From assembly GCF_963422545.2 (NCBI RefSeq), contig NZ_CAXVYT010000026.1, positions 11,844 to 75,843 of the forward strand: DNA of 64,000 nucleotides, given 5' to 3'. Positions within the stretch are counted from its first letter, which is position 1; the number at the start of each line of letters is the position of its first letter. The translations under genes and the position numbers were made by a program. The notes under the pieces are model-generated. The model made no database searches. It saw only the letters and a program-made list of their open reading frames with translations, and had not been told where the DNA came from. Below, in pieces: positions 7,821 to 21,500 of this stretch. This stretch comes from an uncultured Flavobacterium sp. (lineage in GTDB: Bacteria; Bacteroidota; Bacteroidia; Flavobacteriales; Flavobacteriaceae).

Positions 7821-10010
7821 TTAGAATTTCAGAGTCAGTCCGGCAAGGAAATTAATTCCCGCCTGAGGATAGTAGTACGGGTAAACATCCCACATATACC
7901 CATTTGAAACATACTTTTTATCCAAAATATTATTTACTAAACCAGTAATCATAATTGATTTAAAGATTGATTTAGGTTTTATTTCATAAGAAACATTCAA
8001 ATCGTTTACAAAATAGTCAGCTAGTTTTGCGGCAGGCAATTCTATATTGTTCATGTATTGCTCTCCAACATATTTTTGCAATAATGAAAGGTGTAAACTT
8101 TGAATTGGACTATAAACAATAATGTTTCCAGCAATAACAGATGGCGAATAAGCAATTTCTGTTGTTCCATAATTTTGACCTTCAACAGCCAAATCAATAT
8201 TTTTATTACTGCTTAAAGTAAAATTTGGACGAAGAATAAACTTCTCTGAAAGCTTAATTGTTGCATCTGCTTCAAATCCTAAGCGGTAACTTTTTTCGGT
8301 ATTAGCACGAATTGGAGATCCTACATCGTCAAGCCTTCCTGTCAGAATCAATTGATCTCTGTAACCCATATAATAAACATTTGAGTTCAATTGAAATTTC
8401 TCTGAATTGAATCTCCAGCCTAATTCAAAATCATTTAATTTTTCCGGTTTTGCATGTCCACCTTCGTAATCTGTTCTGTTTGGCTCACGATTTGCACGAG
8501 CGTATGAAAAATAAAGAGTATTTTTTTGATTGATTTCGTAATTCAATCCTGCTTTTGGGTTAAAGAAATTGAAGTTATCATCAACTACACCGGTTTCAGC
8601 GCTATTAGCTTTATATTTTACATTTCTATATTGCAAATCTCCATAGAAACTCAATTTTTCTGTGAATTGATAGTTTGCTTTCGCGAAAATATTCCCATCT
8701 GTTTTTGTTGAAAAATCATCGTAATAATGATCGCCTAATTCAGACTTATCAGAATATCTGGCCCAGATTACTTTACCAAAATGATCTCCTTCATATTTAT
8801 TCCAGCCTCCGCCAAGAATAACATCTAACTTTTCTTCTTTATATTTTACTGAAAAAGTTGTTCCGTAGAAATCATTATCTAACCATTTCTGACGGATTAA
8901 ATCGGTTCCAAGAACTAATTCTCCTAAAGCATTTTCAACCATTTTTGTAGACTGAATTGGTCCATATCCAGCAACTGGTTCATTATATTTATAATTTTCA
9001 TAAAACCCTTTTCCTTTAGTATAATGAATAGCTAAGTTGCTGCTCCATTTATCAGAAAGCGATTCACTCCAATGTAATTGATAATGATTTTGTTTATAAT
9101 TATCAGTTTCGTTGTCATAGAAATGGACATTTCCTGCATCATCTTTATACTTTCCTGCTGAATTATAAGTTCGATCTGAATTTAATGTCTCAGCATCAAT
9201 TCCGTTCCAGGATTGGTATGTTTTTTCAGTTCCTCCAAAAACTAACGCTTTAATTAAAGTTGTTTTTCCAACATAAGTTCCTTGAAGAAAATACGATTTT
9301 AAATCTGAGCTTGCACGATCTACATAACCATCAGATTTAATGGTAGACAAACGTCCTGCAAGTTCAAAATGATCGTTTAATAGACCTGTGCTAAATTTTA
9401 CTGTATTTTTATTAGAATTAAAACTTCCGTAAGAACTTGAAATTTCTCCATTAGCTTTAGACGCATAATTGTCTGTCAACATATTCAAACTTGCACCAAA
9501 AGCAGCAGCACCATTTGTAGAAGTTCCTACACCACGCTGCAATTGCAGACTCTCTACAGAAGAGGCAAAATCAGGCATATTCACCCAGAAGGTCCCTTGA
9601 CTTTCGGCATCGTTGTATGGAATTCCGTTTATCGTTACATTTACTCTCGTTGCATCGCTACCACGCACTCTGATTCCGGTATAACCCATTCCGTTTCCTG
9701 CATCAGAAGTTGTTACAACTGATGGTAAGTAATTCATTAAAATTGGAATATCCTGACCCAGATTTCTAAATTTAATATCTTTTTTATCCAGATTGCTAAA
9801 ACTTACCGGCGTTTTTGCAGTAACACGAACCGCAGAAACCAATACATCGTCAAGCTTGTTGACTTTTGTAGAATCTTGTTCCTGAGCGAAAGAAAAAAGA
9901 GTAAAGAAAATAGAGAATAGAGTAAAGAAAATAGATTTTTGATTCAACTTTGAACCTTTGCAACTTTGTACCTTTGTACCTTTAAAAGCACCTTTAATAA
10001 TAGTTTTCAT
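7821..10010 (-). CDS. TonB-dependent outer-membrane receptor (TPP-riboswitch controlled; probable thiamine/precursor uptake)
   Basis: It has a plug and barrel with a C-terminal 'LTLKF' and the TonB-box region 'DDVLVSA'. A TPP riboswitch lies about 90 nt upstream. The true start may instead be the TTG at 9947, giving MNQKSIFFTLF...FA|QEQ (see finding). Confidence 0.88.
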   Translation of the reverse strand: MKTIIKGAFKGTKVQSCKGSKLNQKSIFFTLFSIFFTLFSFAQEQDSTKVNKLDDVLVSAVRVTAKTPVSFSNLDKKDIKFRNLGQDIPILMNYLPSVVTTSDAGNGMGYTGIRVRGSDATRVNVTINGIPYNDAESQGTFWVNMPDFASSVESLQLQRGVGTSTNGAAAFGASLNMLTDNYASKANGEISSSYGSFNSNKNTVKFSTGLLNDHFELAGRLSTIKSDGYVDRASSDLKSYFLQGTYVGKTTLIKALVFGGTEKTYQSWNGIDAETLNSDRTYNSAGKYKDDAGNVHFYDNETDNYKQNHYQLHWSESLSDKWSSNLAIHYTKGKGFYENYKYNEPVAGYGPIQSTKMVENALGELVLGTDLIRQKWLDNDFYGTTFSVKYKEEKLDVILGGGWNKYEGDHFGKVIWARYSDKSELGDHYYDDFSTKTDGNIFAKANYQFTEKLSFYGDLQYRNVKYKANSAETGVVDDNFNFFNPKAGLNYEINQKNTLYFSYARANREPNRTDYEGGHAKPEKLNDFELGWRFNSEKFQLNSNVYYMGYRDQLILTGRLDDVGSPIRANTEKSYRLGFEADATIKLSEKFILRPNFTLSSNKNIDLAVEGQNYGTTEIAYSPSVIAGNIIVYSPIQSLHLSLLQKYVGEQYMNNIELPAAKLADYFVNDLNVSYEIKPKSIFKSIMITGLVNNILDKKYVSNGYMWDVYPYYYPQAGINFLAGLTLKF
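9948..9983. repeat. tandem 8-nt repeat CTTTGNAC x4.5 in the riboswitch-to-CDS leader / annotated N-terminus
   Basis: The sequence reads 'ctttgaac ctttgcaa ctttgtac ctttgtac cttt'. The 8-nt period is not a multiple of 3. Confidence 0.85.
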
Positions 10011-13902: not shown

Positions 13903-14634
13903 TTATTCTGATTCAAAAAAATGACTGTCATTTTCAAAAGCAGTTCCAATAACTACTAAATCAGCACCAGCATTATATGCATTTTGAATTCCGTGCAAAT
14001 CTACAATTCCTCCTCCAACAATTACAGGAATTCTGATATTTTGCGAAATTAACTGTATCATTTCCAGCGGAACGGCATTTTTTGCTCCGCTTCCAGCCTC
14101 TAAATAGATTAATTTATTTCCTAACATTTCTCCCGCCTGTGCGGTTGCCAAAGCCAGATCAAAATCTTCTCTATTAAGCGGTTTTGTTTTACTAACCCGG
14201 GCAACAGCAGTTTCATTACCACTTTCTATTAAAATATAACCTGTAGAAATAACCTCCAGATTCGTTTTTTTAAGAATTGGTGCCGCCTGAACCTGATATT
14301 CTATTAAATAATCAGGATTGCGACCAGACAATAAAGACAAGAACAAAATAGCATCTGCCTGAGGTGAAATCTGTGACGGATTACCCGGAAATATCACAAC
14401 TGGCAAATTGGTATTTTGTTTTAATTGTGCAATCAAATCTTCTAAGATTGTTGATTCCACAATACTCCCTCCCACAAAAATATGTGTTGCAGGAGATTCG
14501 TTTATCTTCTGTAATAAATGGTCTAAATTTTCCCAGACAATTTTATCCGGATCCAAAAGTATAGCCAATAATTTTTGTCCATCTCTTTTAGCCTCTAAAA
14601 TTTGCTGATGTATATTGCGTAATTTTTGCTGCAT
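13903..14634 (-). CDS. pcrB: PcrB/GGGP-synthase family prenyl-glyceryl-phosphate synthase
   Basis: The TIM-barrel motifs 'IFVGGS', 'IYLEAGSGA' and 'VIVGGGI' are present. Confidence 0.82.
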   Translation of the reverse strand: MQQKLRNIHQQILEAKRDGQKLLAILLDPDKIVWENLDHLLQKINESPATHIFVGGSIVESTILEDLIAQLKQNTNLPVVIFPGNPSQISPQADAILFLSLLSGRNPDYLIEYQVQAAPILKKTNLEVISTGYILIESGNETAVARVSKTKPLNREDFDLALATAQAGEMLGNKLIYLEAGSGAKNAVPLEMIQLISQNIRIPVIVGGGIVDLHGIQNAYNAGADLVVIGTAFENDSHFFESE

Positions 14635-16075: not shown

Positions 16076-16114
16076 GTGAAGTTTCTAAGCTATAAGCTAT
16101 TAAACGTATTGTCT

Positions 16115-16199
16115 GTCATTGCGAGGAACGAAGCAATCTCGCTGCAAAGAAACGTTGGTTAATTTAATGAAGTGTGGTTGCTTCGTTCCTCGCAATGAC
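16115..16199. repeat. REP-like inverted pair of the 24-nt unit
   Basis: 'gtcattgcgaggaacgaagcaatc' (16115-16138) and 'ggttgcttcgttcctcgcaatgac' (16176-16199) are separated by a 37-nt spacer. They lie between convergent genes. Confidence 0.9.
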
Positions 16200-16249
16200 A
16201 AGATTGTCCTTATTCACTGGAGACTGCCACTGAACACTGAGACTAAAAA

Positions 16250-16912: not shown

Positions 16913-17089
16913 GCTTTTCTAATTATGAATGATTAATGATGTTAAATCAAAGAATATAATATTATATTCTAATTTAAACCATATATGTGATATAAATTCA
17001 TATATCTTTAGTTTTTTTATTGTATTTTATTATGTAACAAAAATATTTTATTATGATTTTACAGTAATCAAATTTTAGAATCTTTATTT

Positions 17090-17890
17090 TTATAACATTT
17101 CAGCTAATTTCACAATTAACCATGCCAACGGAATAAAAATAAATTGTCCCAAAATGGTTCCAAAAATACGTGCAATTATAACAAAAGTTAGATGTCTTCT
17201 AAAAAATGATTCGGTTACAGAACCGTCTATAACTTTGTCTGTTAAAGTTGCATGATATGGCTCTATAAACAACATCATACCAATAGAGCCTAAGCTAACG
17301 GCAACACCACTCATTGACAATGATGTAGTTCTTAAATTTGGATTTAAATAGCCTGCATATAAACATGATAATACACTTACTGTAATAAAAGCGTATACCA
17401 CAACGTTCAGTAACACTAATTCTATATATATATCTTTAAATTTATTTAATCGATCAAAATTAGATTTCTTTGGTATTGTACAACTATTTTTAAAATGAAT
17501 AACTGTAGACAAACTAAACGATTTAATTACTACCAAAAAAACTGAGCGATTATTATATAATGCATTTACACCTTTTTCCATAAATCTGTGAATTGTTGGA
17601 ATCAATAAACCTCCCAAAACACTTCCAATTGTAGCAGAAAAGATAATATATCTAAAGATTGAAAGATCTGGCGAGTTTCCAAGATTGATATTATTTTCGA
17701 CCGTTTTTGTCAACAAAGGAGCTTGTATTGTATTTGAAAATTGTGATATGATAATTATTATATTAAAAATAGAAGCAGAAGAGGCAATTCTCCTGGTCCT
17801 TGTTCCAACAATCTTAGCCGATAAACTAATAATCCCTATAAAATGAATTATCAAAGTAAGTATGCAAACTATTAAAATATTAGCTGTCAT
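17090..17890 (-). CDS. polytopic membrane protein resembling lipid II flippase Amj (DUF2837)
   Basis: It is 266 aa with about 8 hydrophobic segments. The N-terminus 'IHFIGIISLSAKIVGTRTRRIASSASIFNIIIIISQFSNTIQAPLL' matches my recollection of the Amj/DUF2837 signature. This needs HMM confirmation. Confidence 0.5.
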   Translation of the reverse strand: MTANILIVCILTLIIHFIGIISLSAKIVGTRTRRIASSASIFNIIIIISQFSNTIQAPLLTKTVENNINLGNSPDLSIFRYIIFSATIGSVLGGLLIPTIHRFMEKGVNALYNNRSVFLVVIKSFSLSTVIHFKNSCTIPKKSNFDRLNKFKDIYIELVLLNVVVYAFITVSVLSCLYAGYLNPNLRTTSLSMSGVAVSLGSIGMMLFIEPYHATLTDKVIDGSVTESFFRRHLTFVIIARIFGTILGQFIFIPLAWLIVKLAEML

Positions 17891-17936
17891 ATTATTTCTT
17901 GCAATTATTAATTTATATTATTAAAAGAATTTTGCA

Positions 17937-19010
17937 TTATTTTTTTAAACAATACTTTAAAAAAGCATACAATTTAAGAAATTTCGATTTTAAACGAAGC
18001 TTCGTTAAATTTACTATTATACACTTATATATAAATATATATTGAAAAAATGGAGAATTATATTTTCCTCTTATTTGATTTTTAAAATCTATTATCACAT
18101 CTGAGTAAATCTCTTCTAATTGTGAAACAACCGAAAGAAAATTAGACTCTTTAATAATATATTCAGAAACTTTAATTGTATCGCAAAAATCATATTTATT
18201 AATCTCTACAATCAGATTATTTTTTGTCGGGATATTCGTCATGAGTTTCATTCCAAAATTAAAATCTCTAAAATGTTTCATATTAGAACTTGTAACCATA
18301 CCTCCTAATCCTCTAAAATCACAAACAATTACAGCGGCTCCTGTTGCCATAGCTTCTATTGCTGCTTTTGCTTTCGCAAACACCAAATCATATTCATTAA
18401 GTATTTTTTCAGGCTGCAGACAAATATTCCCACTTGAATAACCTATTATTTCAACTTCAACTCCAAGCTCTTTACAAGCCTCTTTTATTTGAGGATAAAT
18501 ATTATTATCATTCAAATAATTAGAAAAAACCAATGCCTTTTTTGGTTGTTTATTAATATTTTCTTTCAAACGAAATCGGTCTGTATTTACCCAATTATAA
18601 ACAATTTCCACATCCTCTTCTTTAAAATTATTTTCTAAACAATATCGTTCTTTACAATTATAATCAACAGCTACATATCTAAGAATATTCTTATGTATAT
18701 ATGGATGATCAAATATAAAAGTCCTATCATGAATAAAATAAACTACAGGGGTAAATTTAAAAAAACTTATTGCTTTAAGTGCGGTAATATTGTGATGTGC
18801 ATGAATAATATCAGGAATTAGCTTTAACTTTTTTAAATTAGAAGTAACGTTAATTCCTTTTTCTATCAACTCCTTCGACAAATTACCCATTCTCAATGTG
18901 AAAATTTCTACTAAATGCCCTCTGTTGACGAGTTCAATTGCTAATTCTTTTACATATGTTTCTGTTCCGGTGTATTCAGAAATAGCAATGTTTGTGATTA
19001 ATACATTCAT
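17937..19010 (-). CDS. GT-B glycosyltransferase, family 4 (Glycos_transf_1)
   Basis: The C-terminal-domain motif 'AKAKAAIEAMATGAAVIVCDFRGLGGMV' is present. Its ATG directly abuts the upstream stop. Confidence 0.78.
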   Translation of the reverse strand: MNVLITNIAISEYTGTETYVKELAIELVNRGHLVEIFTLRMGNLSKELIEKGINVTSNLKKLKLIPDIIHAHHNITALKAISFFKFTPVVYFIHDRTFIFDHPYIHKNILRYVAVDYNCKERYCLENNFKEEDVEIVYNWVNTDRFRLKENINKQPKKALVFSNYLNDNNIYPQIKEACKELGVEVEIIGYSSGNICLQPEKILNEYDLVFAKAKAAIEAMATGAAVIVCDFRGLGGMVTSSNMKHFRDFNFGMKLMTNIPTKNNLIVEINKYDFCDTIKVSEYIIKESNFLSVVSQLEEIYSDVIIDFKNQIRGKYNSPFFQYIFIYKCIIVNLTKLRLKSKFLKLYAFLKYCLKK

Positions 19011-19790
19011 TTATACTAAATTATCATTAATACCCAAACACAATTCAGCAATAGGTTTAATATGTTTTTCAAAAGTTATAACAGTAGAGTACGATCCCTC
19101 TTTCACTCTTTTTTCTCCAAACTGCTCGTAGTAAGGTTTTGAAGTATTCCAGTTTGAAATTTGACTAAGATCTGACACCTTTCCAAATGATTCCCACAAA
19201 AAGACTTCTTTCCCATATTTCTTAACAGCCGTTTCAACTTCATATTTTAACTCCGGATAATTCATTGCCGCTTCCATTTTCATATAAAATTCTTCGTCAG
19301 AAAGCCTCAGAGACAGTCCTCCTATATTATTATCAATTGAAATGTTATTTGGTGCAGAGTCTAATACAAAATCATAATTTAAGATTTCTTTTGAACTATC
19401 ATCAGAAGATATCGCTGAAAGAATCCCGTTGATCAAATACCTGCAAATATCATGAGTAGGATTAAATCCTTCTAAAGCATCACCTACAATTACATCATAA
19501 TTATTTGTAATAATGAGATTCTTCAAGCTATTCATATATGATGATATCTCAGACAAATCTTGCTCTAAAACTATATTATATAATTCCTTATCTGTAAATA
19601 CTTTTATAGAATCTTGAAATTTCGCCCCTATTGAATCTAGTAATTTTATAGATTGATGAATTCTTGAAGCATTACTTGAGCCAGAGCCATCAGTTAAAAT
19701 AAATACATCTGGTTTGTATTTTTTTATATATGTATATGCTCTTAGTTCATGTCCGGGATGGCCAATTATTAATGCTGTTTTTGTTTTCAT
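19011..19790 (-). CDS. PIG-L/LmbE-like de-N-acetylase with non-canonical metal motif
   Basis: 'ALIIGHPGHELRAY...VFILTDGSGS...GFNPTHD' aligns to the PIG-L pattern 'AHPDDE...TdG...HpDH'. The motif DD is replaced by GH. Confidence 0.55.
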   Translation of the reverse strand: MKTKTALIIGHPGHELRAYTYIKKYKPDVFILTDGSGSSNASRIHQSIKLLDSIGAKFQDSIKVFTDKELYNIVLEQDLSEISSYMNSLKNLIITNNYDVIVGDALEGFNPTHDICRYLINGILSAISSDDSSKEILNYDFVLDSAPNNISIDNNIGGLSLRLSDEEFYMKMEAAMNYPELKYEVETAVKKYGKEVFLWESFGKVSDLSQISNWNTSKPYYEQFGEKRVKEGSYSTVITFEKHIKPIAELCLGINDNLV

Positions 19791-20142
19791 TTTTTTCCTA
19801 AAATTGTTAAATCAATGATTTAATTCATAGCGCAAGATAGTAATTATAGAATACTATGAAAAAAAAATACAAAATACCAAAACAACTTCTTTCCATAAAA
19901 ATAATACAACAATAAAATCTAAATCACCAAAAAGATGTCTAATACTATATTAAAAAAACGAAAGACTAGTATAAAAAAACAGATTACAAAAATCCTAATT
20001 TATAAACTGATAGAATTAAAAAGGATTTCATCAAAAGAGGAATTAACTTCTAAAAGCTATACCTAACTAACATTCTAAAGATTAAGAAATTAAACATTTC
20101 ACAAATCTTACAGAAAGTAGTCAAAATTAAAAAGCTATTCCG

Positions 20143-20150
20143 TAAATTTG
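20143..20150 (+). promoter_or_regulatory. -7 promoter box TAnnTTTG
   Basis: 'taaatttg' lies 34 nt upstream of the ahcY ATG at 20184. Confidence 0.5.
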
Positions 20151-20183
20151 CAAAAATTTTACAATATACAAATATACTATATA

Positions 20184-21500
20184 ATGAGTACTACAACTAC
20201 GCCTTTTGTGGCTTTCAAAGTAAAAGACATTTCTCTAGCGGCTTGGGGAAGAAAAGAAATTGAACTAGCTGAAGCTGAAATGCCAGGTTTAATGGCGCTT
20301 CGTGCTGAATATAAAGACGAACAACCTCTTAAAGGTGCTCGTATCGCTGGATGTTTGCACATGACGATTCAGACTGCTGTTTTGATCGAAACTTTAATCG
20401 CTCTTGGTGCTGAGGTTACTTGGTCTTCTTGTAACATTTTCTCTACTCAGGATCAGGCTGCTGCTGCTATTGCTGCTGCCGGAATTCAGGTTTATGCATG
20501 GAAAGGTCTTGATGAGCAATCATTTGACTGGTGTATTGAGCAAACTTTATTCTTTGGTGAGGACAGAAAACCATTGAACATGATTCTTGATGACGGTGGA
20601 GATTTAACAAACATGGTTATTGACCGTTTCCCGGAATTAGTTCCTGGAATCAAAGGATTGTCTGAAGAAACTACAACTGGAGTTCACAGACTTTACGAAA
20701 GAGTAAAAGCCGGAACTTTACCAATGCCTGCAATCAACATTAACGACTCTGTTACTAAATCGAAATTTGATAACAAATACGGTTGTAAAGAATCTGCTGT
20801 AGATGCAGTTCGTCGTGCAACTGACTTAATGTTAGCTGGAAAAAGAGTTATCGTTTGTGGATACGGTGATGTTGGAAAAGGAACTGCAGCTTCTTTTAGA
20901 GGTGCTGGATCTATTGTAACTGTTACTGAAATTGACCCAATTTGTGCTTTACAAGCTGCAATGGACGGTTATGAAGTTAAAAAATTAAACACTGTAATTG
21001 CTAATGCTGATATCATCATTACAACTACAGGAAATAAAGATATCGTTCTTGGAAGTCATTTCGAGCAAATGAAAGACAAAACTGTTGTTTGTAACATCGG
21101 ACACTTTGATAACGAAATTGATATGGCTTGGTTGAACAAAAACCACGGTGCATCAAAAATCGAAATCAAACCACAAGTTGACAAATATACTATCGCTGGA
21201 AAAGATATCATCATTCTTGCTGAAGGTCGTTTAGTAAACCTTGGTTGTGCTACAGGTCACCCAAGTTTTGTAATGAGTAACTCATTTACAAACCAAACTT
21301 TAGCGCAAATCGAATTATGGAATAACAGCGCTGCTTACAACAATGACGTTTATATGTTACCAAAACATTTAGATGAAAAAGTTGCTGCTTTGCACTTAGC
21401 TAAATTAGGAGTTGAATTGGAAACTTTACGTGACGATCAAGCTGCTTATATTGGTGTTCCAGTTGAAGGTCCATTCAAACCAGAATACTACAGATACTAG
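20184..21500 (+). CDS. ahcY: adenosylhomocysteinase
   Basis: It has the NAD-binding motif '[10 protein letters not shown]' and full-length AhcY similarity. I place the start at MSTTTTPF, since the ORF start at 20148 overlaps the promoter box. Confidence 0.95.

Follow-up and report, generated by a model that had tools for sequence, protein, structure and literature searches.

A phylum-spanning gene pair for an LmbE-fold protein and a divergent GT4-like glycosyltransferase, followed by an Amj-family gene in Flavobacterium: a possible envelope-glycoconjugate module

The stretch of DNA that was analysed (referred to here as the window) comprises 64,000 nucleotides (nt) of contig NZ_CAXVYT010000026.1 from an uncultured Flavobacterium species, and it contains a compact cassette of three genes on the minus strand. 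These genes encode a variant LmbE-fold metallohydrolase that is a putative de-N-acetylase (gene 1), a divergent GT-B/GT4-like glycosyltransferase (gene 2) and a polytopic membrane protein of the Amj family that is a putative flippase (gene 3). Their positions are summarized in Table 1. The coordinates and strand of the three genes, the abutment of genes 1 and 2 at 19011/19010 and the 46-nt gap between genes 2 and 3, as given in a preliminary description of this DNA, were reproduced exactly by open reading frame (ORF) analysis. The stop codon of gene 1 (19013-19011) directly abuts the ATG of gene 2, and a scan of the stretch that separates gene 2 from gene 3 found no terminator-like site, which is consistent with co-transcription of these two genes. 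Three aspects of this cassette are new, viz. a large unnamed branch of the LmbE fold with an HxGH...H motif, the strict pairing of its members with a divergent GT4-like enzyme across phyla, and the presence of a subclade of Amj in a cassette of this kind.

Table 1. Features of the three-gene cassette and the adjoining intergenic regions in the window.
Feature	Position	Strand	Details
Gene 1, LmbE-fold metallohydrolase variant, putative de-N-acetylase	19790-19011	minus	259 amino acids; ORF and AlphaFold2 (AF2) fold
Gene 2, divergent GT-B/GT4-like glycosyltransferase	19010-17937	minus	357 amino acids; PF13439 and AF2 fold
Gene 3, Amj-family (PF10997, formerly DUF2837) polytopic membrane protein, putative flippase	17890-17090	minus	266 amino acids; Pfam
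Gap between genes 2 and 3	17891-17936	minus	46 nt, AT-rich, 13% GC
Intergenic region shared by the divergently oriented gene 1 and ahcY	19791-20183		presumed cassette promoter; conservation among close relatives
Spacer between the Amj gene and the downstream PPTase gene	16913-17089		177 nt, 14.7% GC

The cassette had been described as AT-rich by eye, and it is the most AT-rich stretch in its vicinity. The GC contents of genes 1, 2, and 3 are 30.5, 26.8, and 29.1%, respectively, compared with a mean of 34.1% (standard deviation 3.1) for 57 ORFs of the window, and gene 2 has the lowest GC content of any gene in the window (z=-2.35; z=-2.1 for GC at third codon positions). The GC content of the cassette was also below that of its flanks in all 10 of the related loci that were checked. 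The AT-richness is real but modest.

To examine how these genes are distributed in other bacteria, a survey was carried out in which each species was represented by one genome. Relatives of gene 1 were found at 407 loci, and the best 80 of these were analysed. They are from the Bacteroidota, Acidobacteriota, Verrucomicrobiota, Gemmatimonadota, and Planctomycetota, together with one Chlamydiae metagenome-assembled genome (MAG), and represent at least six phyla. A homolog of gene 2 adjoins gene 1 in 79 of the 80 loci. In 69 of these pairs the two genes are co-oriented and lie within about 200 nt of each other, seven pairs are convergent, and the remaining three have gaps of 0.5-0.7 kb. The pair formed by genes 1 and 2 is a functional unit. 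The co-occurrence of all three genes, which the preliminary description had suggested testing in Bacteroidota, is seen in seven of the 80 loci, where an Amj gene follows the pair, but only the pair is conserved. These seven loci belong to two groups of Flavobacterium, clade A (L001-L003) and clade B (L005, L008, and L009), and to a Chitinophagaceae MAG (L021). The conserved unit is the pair, and Amj is a lineage-specific addition to it. Congruent identity matrices were obtained for the three proteins, and the triad is found within three different sets of flanking genes, one of them in the Chitinophagaceae MAG, as well as on four metagenomic contigs (L089-L092). Due to this congruent divergence and the three flanking contexts, the triad has travelled as a unit. 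In the nearest cultured relative, F. araucananum (L001), the proteins encoded by genes 1-3 are 94, 87, and 95% identical to those of the window, and AhcY is 100% identical.

The family to which gene 1 belongs is large, with 255 matches in a word-indexed search and 1,460 representatives at 50% identity in an exhaustive search. The preliminary description had pointed to the sequence HPGHE in place of the HPDDE of related enzymes. This motif is present at residues 11-15 and it is invariant in 46 family members showing 33-94% identity. It is followed by the motifs LTDGSG (residues 32-37) and D104..E107-G-x-N-P-x-H113-D114, and the residues H11, H14, E15, D104, E107, H113, D114, and R117 are invariant in the family. 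The AF2 model of this protein (predicted local distance difference test score (pLDDT) 92.4; predicted template modelling score 0.91) shows the Rossmann-like alpha/beta fold of LmbE, albeit with distant matches. Its best full-length matches in Foldseek searches were 2ixd, 6iiy, 2x9l, 3dfi, 3dff, and 1uan, and the named proteins matched include BC1534/BshB, which was the best, teicoplanin Orf2*, Dbv21, and TT1542. The order of motifs upon this scaffold (beta1-HPGHE-alpha1, then beta2-LTDGSG, then a beta strand followed by D and ALEGFNPTHD) mirrors that of the LmbE active site.

In the LmbE superfamily the active site is defined by the motif H-X-D1-D2 and a further H, where the two histidines and D2 bind the metal and D1 serves as the general base; this motif is found in all characterised LmbE-like enzymes, and the spacing between the second and third ligands is 97-148 residues (PMC4101496). 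In gene 1 (H11-P-G13-H14...H113) both histidines are retained and the corresponding spacing of 99 residues is within this range. However, the HXDD part of the motif is not retained, as D1 corresponds to Gly13 and D2 to H14, an equivalence that is based upon motif order and predicted secondary structure and not upon coordinate superposition. From the arrangement of these residues we infer a metal site of three histidines (H11, H14, and H113) with a relocated general base, the candidates for which are E15, D114, E107, and D104, all of which are invariant. No transmembrane segment or signal peptide was found in the proteins of genes 1 and 2, and that of gene 1 is cytoplasmic.

In two metagenomic proteins (P0375 and P0403) the gene 1 domain is fused, in opposite orders, to a sulfotransferase domain, and this suggests that in some lineages gene 1 exposes a group for a subsequent modification. 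A third apparent fusion, of a thioredoxin-like domain with gene 1 in P0468, is likely a read-through, with an Arg-rich linker in a high-GC genome, and it was not used as evidence. Homology of the sulfotransferase fusions to the animal N-deacetylase/N-sulfotransferase (NDST) was also considered, but it was dropped as the NDST deacetylase domain is a CE4-like (beta/alpha)7 barrel. The N-deacetylase/sulfotransferase logic is analogous rather than homologous to that of NDST. Apart from the fusions, sulfotransferase genes are located beside the pair in at least seven loci, and in a Saprospiraceae locus the third slot is held by a gene with weak similarity to sulfotransferases. In five loci the nearest gene downstream of the pair encodes a sulfatase. 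The set of fusions, neighbours and sulfatases comprises P0375 and P0403 and the loci L013, L017, L041, L051, L058, L076, L077, and L081.

The protein encoded by gene 2 matches the Glyco_transf_4-type family PF13439 in its N-terminal domain only (2.8e-12; 47.4 bits versus a cutoff of 28.5). Its AF2 model (pLDDT 93.9) has a GT-B fold, and the 193 PDB matches obtained for it by Foldseek at E<=1e-3 are led by GT4 enzymes, of which the best are the retaining enzymes tll1591, BshA, MshA, PimA, WbnH, and PglA (E from 1e-12 to 1e-9). Hence, its earlier description as a GT4 enzyme is sustained in that it is GT-B/GT4-like, although it is divergent. Among the fold matches, BshA and MshA are partners of LmbE-type deacetylases, whereas PglA, WbnH, and PimA act on lipid-linked acceptors. 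The invariant residues of its family include F211, K213, K215, and E219. The C-terminal tail is hydrophobic and strongly basic (+10/0 over the last 42 residues), which suggests that the enzyme associates with the membrane surface, and many of its homologs carry coiled-coil or amphipathic extensions.

The earlier comparison of gene 3 with Amj, which referred to the N-terminus, understated the resemblance. The protein is a full-length member of PF10997 (E=1e-70; 238.5 bits versus a cutoff of 27), with residues 11-262 aligning to positions 1-252 of the 253 in the model. It is polytopic, with about six hydrophobic segments, and an identical protein is named "lipid II flippase family protein" by NCBI. 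The alternate lipid II flippase of B. subtilis, Amj (YdaH), belongs to the same Pfam family and is similar to it in size and polytopic topology. However, amj of B. subtilis is a stand-alone, stress-induced gene, whereas the subclade containing gene 3 is located in an operon-like cassette with glycan-modifying enzymes.

The genes surrounding the pair in the 80 loci were also examined. A gene of a flippase family is located within 6 kb of the pair in 26 loci; it belongs to Amj in seven of them and to the MOP (Polysacc_synt) flippases in 19. The pair and the flippase gene show at least six different arrangements. In Flavobacterium the Amj gene is downstream of the pair. The MOP gene of Aquimarina is divergent and upstream, that of Roseivirga is located 2.4 kb upstream, and that of Chitinophaga is convergent and downstream, while a co-oriented MOP gene is found upstream in Pyrinomonadaceae and downstream in Longimicrobiaceae. 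In two Longimicrobium loci (L051 and L076) the MOP gene begins at the stop codon of the glycosyltransferase gene, which is the slot held by Amj. Apparent fusions of the glycosyltransferase to a MOP protein in L076 and L062 were rejected, as the two genes are adjacent and in different frames and the fusions were artefacts of stop-to-stop ORFs. When the single nearest genes on each side of the pair were counted, flippases ranked first (seven Amj and 11 Polysacc_synt), followed by GT1/GT4 glycosyltransferases (6), sulfatases (5), GT2 glycosyltransferases (4), sulfotransferases (3), and TylF-type methyltransferases (3).

Based upon these results, our preferred reading, which we hold tentatively and at somewhat less than even odds, is that the cassette is an envelope-glycoconjugate module, in which the combined action of an N-acetylhexosamine (HexNAc) transferase and a de-N-acetylase would yield an amino sugar on a lipid carrier, to be flipped thereafter. 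In the scheme that we infer, which extends to the catalytic activities, the sugar, the acceptor, the order of the steps and the action of Amj upon the product of the pair, the GT-B/GT4-like enzyme would be positioned at the cytoplasmic surface of the membrane by its basic hydrophobic C-terminal tail. There it would transfer HexNAc, most likely N-acetylglucosamine (GlcNAc) from UDP-GlcNAc, to a lipid-linked acceptor, for which the candidates are an undecaprenyl diphosphate (Und-PP)-linked sugar and a glycerophospholipid or glycolipid. The LmbE-fold enzyme, with H11, H14, and H113 as predicted metal ligands, would then remove the N-acetyl group on the cytoplasmic face to give a free amine. In this Flavobacterium lineage, Amj, encoded 46 nt downstream, would flip the lipid-linked amino sugar to the outer leaflet. 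In other phyla this role could be taken by the MOP/Wzx flippase beside the pair, or by a housekeeping flippase where none is linked. Because Wzx-type flippases and Amj handle Und-PP substrates, and PglA and WbnH are close folds, we lean slightly toward an Und-PP acceptor that would originate outside the cassette. The data agree just as well with a phospholipid or glycolipid acceptor of the kind used by PimA, PIG-A, and GpgS.

A number of observations weigh against this reading, and they concern all three of the genes. No Pfam or NCBIfam family was found for the protein of gene 1. None of 46 diverse members of its family matches PF02585 (PIG-L) even at E<=10, phmmer and profile searches of PDB sequences with gene 1 yielded no PIG-L-type match, and an hhalign comparison of its profile with MshB (verified to be identical in sequence to 1Q74) gave a probability of 0.4%. 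A sequence-level kinship of gene 1 to PIG-L was dropped in view of these negative comparisons, and because of them its link to LmbE/PIG-L rests upon the fold. The fit of the fold is itself modest, as the matches are distant (E from 1e-4 to 8e-3; template modelling scores of 0.42-0.54; 10-16% identity), and the canonical general-base Asp is absent, with Gly13 in its place. Hence, of the original assignment of gene 1 to PIG-L/LmbE, the part that stands is that its best fold matches are LmbE proteins, whereas PF02585, the MshB comparison and the HXDD+H motif all fail to bear it out.

The failed HXD1D2+H motif (PMC4101496), the lack of a PF02585 match and the moderate fold similarity would also fit a different role for gene 1, in which it is not a de-N-acetylase but carries out another hydrolysis (O-deacylation, or an amidase reaction on another N-acyl group) or acts as a non-catalytic partner of the glycosyltransferase. 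We consider such a role improbable, since about ten polar residues of the family are invariant and are clustered in the three positions of the LmbE active-site motifs, both His ligands are found at the expected spacing, and the strict pairing with a GT4-like enzyme mirrors the known GT4/LmbE pairs. The fusion to a sulfotransferase likewise suggests that a freshly exposed nucleophile is modified next.

For gene 2, the proposed HexNAc transfer has to contend with two departures from typical GT4 enzymes. No match to the C-terminal domain Glycos_transf_1 (PF00534) was obtained at E<=1, and in an alignment with a biopterin glucosyltransferase E219 is located at the second Glu of the EX7E motif but its first position is taken by the invariant Phe211. 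Because of the undetected Glycos_transf_1 domain and the replacement of the first Glu by Phe, the donor and chemistry of gene 2 may differ from those of a typical GT4 enzyme. In addition, no initiating phosphoglycosyltransferase, ligase or polymerase gene is located near the cassette in the window, and in 54 of the 80 loci a flippase gene is absent from the 6 kb around the pair.

The product of the pair could also be soluble. According to this explanation, the two enzymes would make a soluble GlcN-glycoside, either a precursor of a low-molecular-weight thiol or some other metabolite, by the route of BshA/BshB or MshA/MshB, and the membrane protein would be unrelated. It draws upon the presence of BshA and MshA among the best folds for gene 2 and of BshB (BC1534) as the best for gene 1, upon the lack of any transmembrane segment or signal peptide in either protein, and upon the many pair loci, such as L082, where the pair has no glycan context of any kind. 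We nevertheless regard a soluble product as quite unlikely. The recurrent neighbours of the pair are flippases, other glycosyltransferases, sulfotransferases, and methyltransferases, and such a company of genes speaks for the assembly of a lipid-linked glycan and not for a soluble thiol. The glycosyltransferase has a basic hydrophobic tail and many of its homologs have the extensions noted above, and the motif of gene 1 departs from those of BshB and MshB at catalytic positions. Moreover, in agreement with the earlier remark that no ligase follows the pair, no BshC/MshC-type cysteine ligase is encoded within 4 kb in the window or is found among the top neighbour families of the 80 loci, although such ligases are often encoded by unlinked genes.

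The remaining points against a lipid-linked amino sugar that is flipped by Amj concern gene 3. In the retrieved literature Amj is presented solely as a lipid II flippase, lipid II is its only demonstrated substrate, and even this physiological role is disputed (PMC12096821). In a reverse test with 80 metagenomic Amj loci, the pair was found upstream of Amj in four (L089-L092), the only ones in which Amj is at least 67% identical to that of the window, and it was absent from the other 76. The nearest neighbours of these other Amj genes are heterogeneous (74 neighbours in 76 metagenomic loci) and show no conserved neighbourhood, and a hidden Markov model search for homologs of genes 1 and 2 among the unannotated Amj neighbours in L081, L083, L085, and L086 found none. 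Lastly, two Flavobacterium loci (L006, from a MAG, and L007, from F. fluviatile), which are nested within clade B, have the pair without Amj. At ~7840-7910 in these loci a convergent mfd (TRCF) gene lies about 66 nt after the pair, at the place of Amj in L005, L008, and L009. Amj has been cleanly lost from, or is missing in, part of a single clade, and it is therefore dispensable for retention of the pair.

These observations fit an alternative in which a lipid-linked amino-sugar glycan is indeed the product of the pair, with Amj as a mere neighbour. Amj would then be a stand-alone accessory lipid II flippase, like that of B. subtilis, whose position beside the pair was fixed in one lineage, and the glycan would be handled by generalist flippases. 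Most Amj genes are indeed stand-alone with varied neighbours, most pair loci have no linked flippase, and HexF and GpgF of the systems discussed below are likewise not needed for formation of the product. We consider this alternative unlikely, as the triad is intact in three genomic contexts and in two classes with congruent divergence, Amj is on the same strand as the pair after a gap of 46 nt that contains no terminator-like site, and in other phyla MOP flippases occupy the same slot. A different link with lipid II is conceivable if the substrate of the pair is lipid I or lipid II, i.e., a precursor of peptidoglycan, to which a sugar is added or in which one is deacetylated on the cytoplasmic face, and Amj is the dedicated flippase of the modified lipid II. 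Lipid II being the only known substrate of Amj (PMC12096821) would accord with this, and so would the lack of an initiating transferase in the cassette, owing to which a pre-existing lipid-linked acceptor is needed. However, in most pair loci the linked flippase is of the Wzx type, or there is no linked flippase, and Amj or MurJ is not the usual partner, no mur or penicillin-binding protein genes recur beside the pair, and such a modification has no precedent; we regard it as highly improbable.

The notion that Amj generally sits in glycan operons, which was suggested by four Bacteroidota loci, was not upheld by the census of its neighbours. Two operons of this type were observed. In a Sediminibacterium-like locus (L086:1265-8871) Amj is found with genes for a GT1 glycosyltransferase, UDP-GlcNAc 2-epimerase, GNAT, DegT, Bac_transf, and a carbamoyltransferase, and in an Aquirufa locus (L084:4562-6819) it is found with an RmlC-like gene and a GT2 gene. 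In both of them Amj occupies the place expected for a Wzx flippase, but they represent an exception and not the rule for the family.

The proposed sequence of a glycosyltransferase, a deacetylase and a flippase has precedents, and the earlier statement that no such pathway is described needs to be qualified on account of two systems whose D and F components are from other families. In P. aeruginosa, the GpgSDF system, consisting of a GT4 enzyme, a COG3233 deacetylase and a UPF0104 flippase, makes glucosaminyl-phosphatidylglycerol (GlcN-PG), and in C. difficile HexSDF makes aminohexosyl-hexosyl-diradylglycerol (HNHDRG) by the same logic; both are proven by lipidomics (PMC12713373 and PMC10128005, respectively). 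Similar to GpgSDF, the cassette is a three-gene operon for a GT4-superfamily enzyme, a deacetylase-like protein and a polytopic putative flippase. In GpgSDF the first is a cytoplasmic GlcNAc transferase and the second a deacetylase, likewise cytoplasmic, which produces the GlcN-lipid from the GlcNAc-lipid. However, GpgD is of the COG3233 type and not LmbE-fold, GpgF is UPF0104/MprF-like and not Amj, and GpgS is a typical cd03814 GT4 enzyme, unlike gene 2, in which no Glycos_transf_1 domain was detected and the first Glu of EX7E is missing. The genes are also arranged differently, as S-D-F in GpgSDF and as D-S-F in the cassette. With HexSDF the cassette shares the synthase-deacetylase-flippase logic that leads to a free-amine glycolipid, and in that system loss of the deacetylase results in accumulation of the N-acetyl intermediate. 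Here also the components differ: HexS is similar to the monogalactosyldiacylglycerol synthase, HexD belongs to the CE4 polysaccharide deacetylases and may act extracellularly, HexF is MprF-like, and none of the three is homologous to genes 1-3 at the family level. Thus, what the cassette has in common with these systems is a co-oriented operon of a glycosyltransferase, a deacetylase-like protein and a polytopic flippase, and not homology of the D and F components. Neither GpgF nor HexF is needed for the product to be formed, in agreement with the retention of the pair without Amj in L006 and L007.

The succession of a GT4 enzyme and an LmbE-type deacetylase is also the established two-step logic of the glycosylphosphatidylinositol (GPI), mycothiol, and bacillithiol pathways (PMC4101496). 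In PIG-A/PIG-L, MshA/MshB, and BshA/BshB the addition of GlcNAc by a retaining GT-B enzyme is followed by its deacetylation by an LmbE-fold metallohydrolase, and these proteins are the nearest solved folds for genes 1 and 2. In GPI synthesis the GlcN-lipid is subsequently flipped, as is proposed for the cassette. These pairs differ from that of the cassette in that the latter has HPGH...H and not HXDD...H, shows no PF02585 signal and is not followed by a ligase step. A comparable order of events is seen in the Arn pathway for lipid A aminoarabinose (ArnC/ArnD/ArnE-F), where a sugar is placed upon a lipid carrier, de-N-acylated at the cytoplasmic face and moved by a dedicated small flippase. 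In this case, however, ArnC is a GT2 enzyme, ArnD is CE4-like, ArnE/F are SMR-like, the carrier is undecaprenyl phosphate, and the sugar is 4-deoxy-4-formamido-L-arabinose (Ara4FN).

A more extended form of our reading would take the pair as a phylum-spanning envelope pathway, in which a new LmbE branch with a His-His-His site and relocated base, acting with a divergent GT4 enzyme, installs a free-amine hexosamine upon a lipid-linked glycan that is sulfated in some lineages, and in which a subclade of Amj has been recruited as the dedicated flippase in Flavobacterium. This extended form is possible but on the whole doubtful. If it is true, it would provide the first natural evidence of transport by the Amj family beyond lipid II. 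If the module reading itself is correct, the family of gene 1, which comprises about 1,460 clusters (at 50% identity) and has no Pfam model, would extend LmbE beyond the HXDD+H motif that had been taken to be universal, and a role would be at hand for a pair that is strictly conserved in Bacteroidota, Acidobacteriota, Verrucomicrobiota, and Gemmatimonadota. When envelope lipids carry free-amine sugars, the surface charge and the resistance to cationic antimicrobials are altered, which has been demonstrated with GlcN-PG and HNHDRG. The operon context also makes the question of the Amj substrate testable in a cultivable Flavobacterium.

The cassette is bounded by two long spacers, as had been noted, and these measure 177 nt on the side of the phosphopantetheinyl transferase (PPTase) gene and 352-393 nt on the side of ahcY. 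The latter value depends upon the start of ahcY, since the spacer (21% GC) extends for 352 nt to a TTG start of the ORF and for 393 nt to an ATG at 20184. The ATG agrees with the 438-amino-acid ortholog in F. araucananum, and the start is probably at this ATG rather than at the TTG at 20148. No Rfam family or riboswitch was matched in the long spacers at E<=1. A scan for sigma-70 promoters and terminators gave counts at the level of shuffled sequences and was uninformative, the promoters of Bacteroidota being outside its models. A role in anti-phage defence was considered for the cassette and dropped, as it showed no match to a PADLOC defence signature.

The genes flanking the cassette in the window are of a housekeeping nature, with those for PcrB-family, Crp, globin, and PPTase proteins on one side and those for AhcY, SMR, GNAT, and Ada-like proteins on the other. 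The PPTase gene is outside the module, because its synteny is limited to the closest relatives. Similarly, a gene of the PcrB family (polyprenylglyceryl-phosphate synthase-like; 13903-14634, minus strand), located 2.5 kb from the cassette, is syntenic with it only in the closest relatives (L001-L003) and therefore has no conserved link to it. Between the convergent globin-like and PPTase genes there is a near-perfect hairpin (16111-16204) with a 28-bp stem, for which the RNA minimum free energy is -58.3 kcal/mol (z=-7.6). It gave sub-threshold matches to plant microRNA precursors on both strands, which reflect the palindrome only, and it is probably a bidirectional terminator or an element similar to repetitive extragenic palindromes. 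Within the spacer between gene 1 and ahcY, the ahcY-proximal ~200 nt (~19980-20183) are almost invariant between the window and L001-L004, whereas the half proximal to gene 1 is far more variable, with the ~70 nt next to gene 1 conserved among close relatives. A Bacteroidota-type TAnnTTTG box is located at 20143 on the plus strand, and the invariant region may represent a conserved leader or promoter of ahcY.

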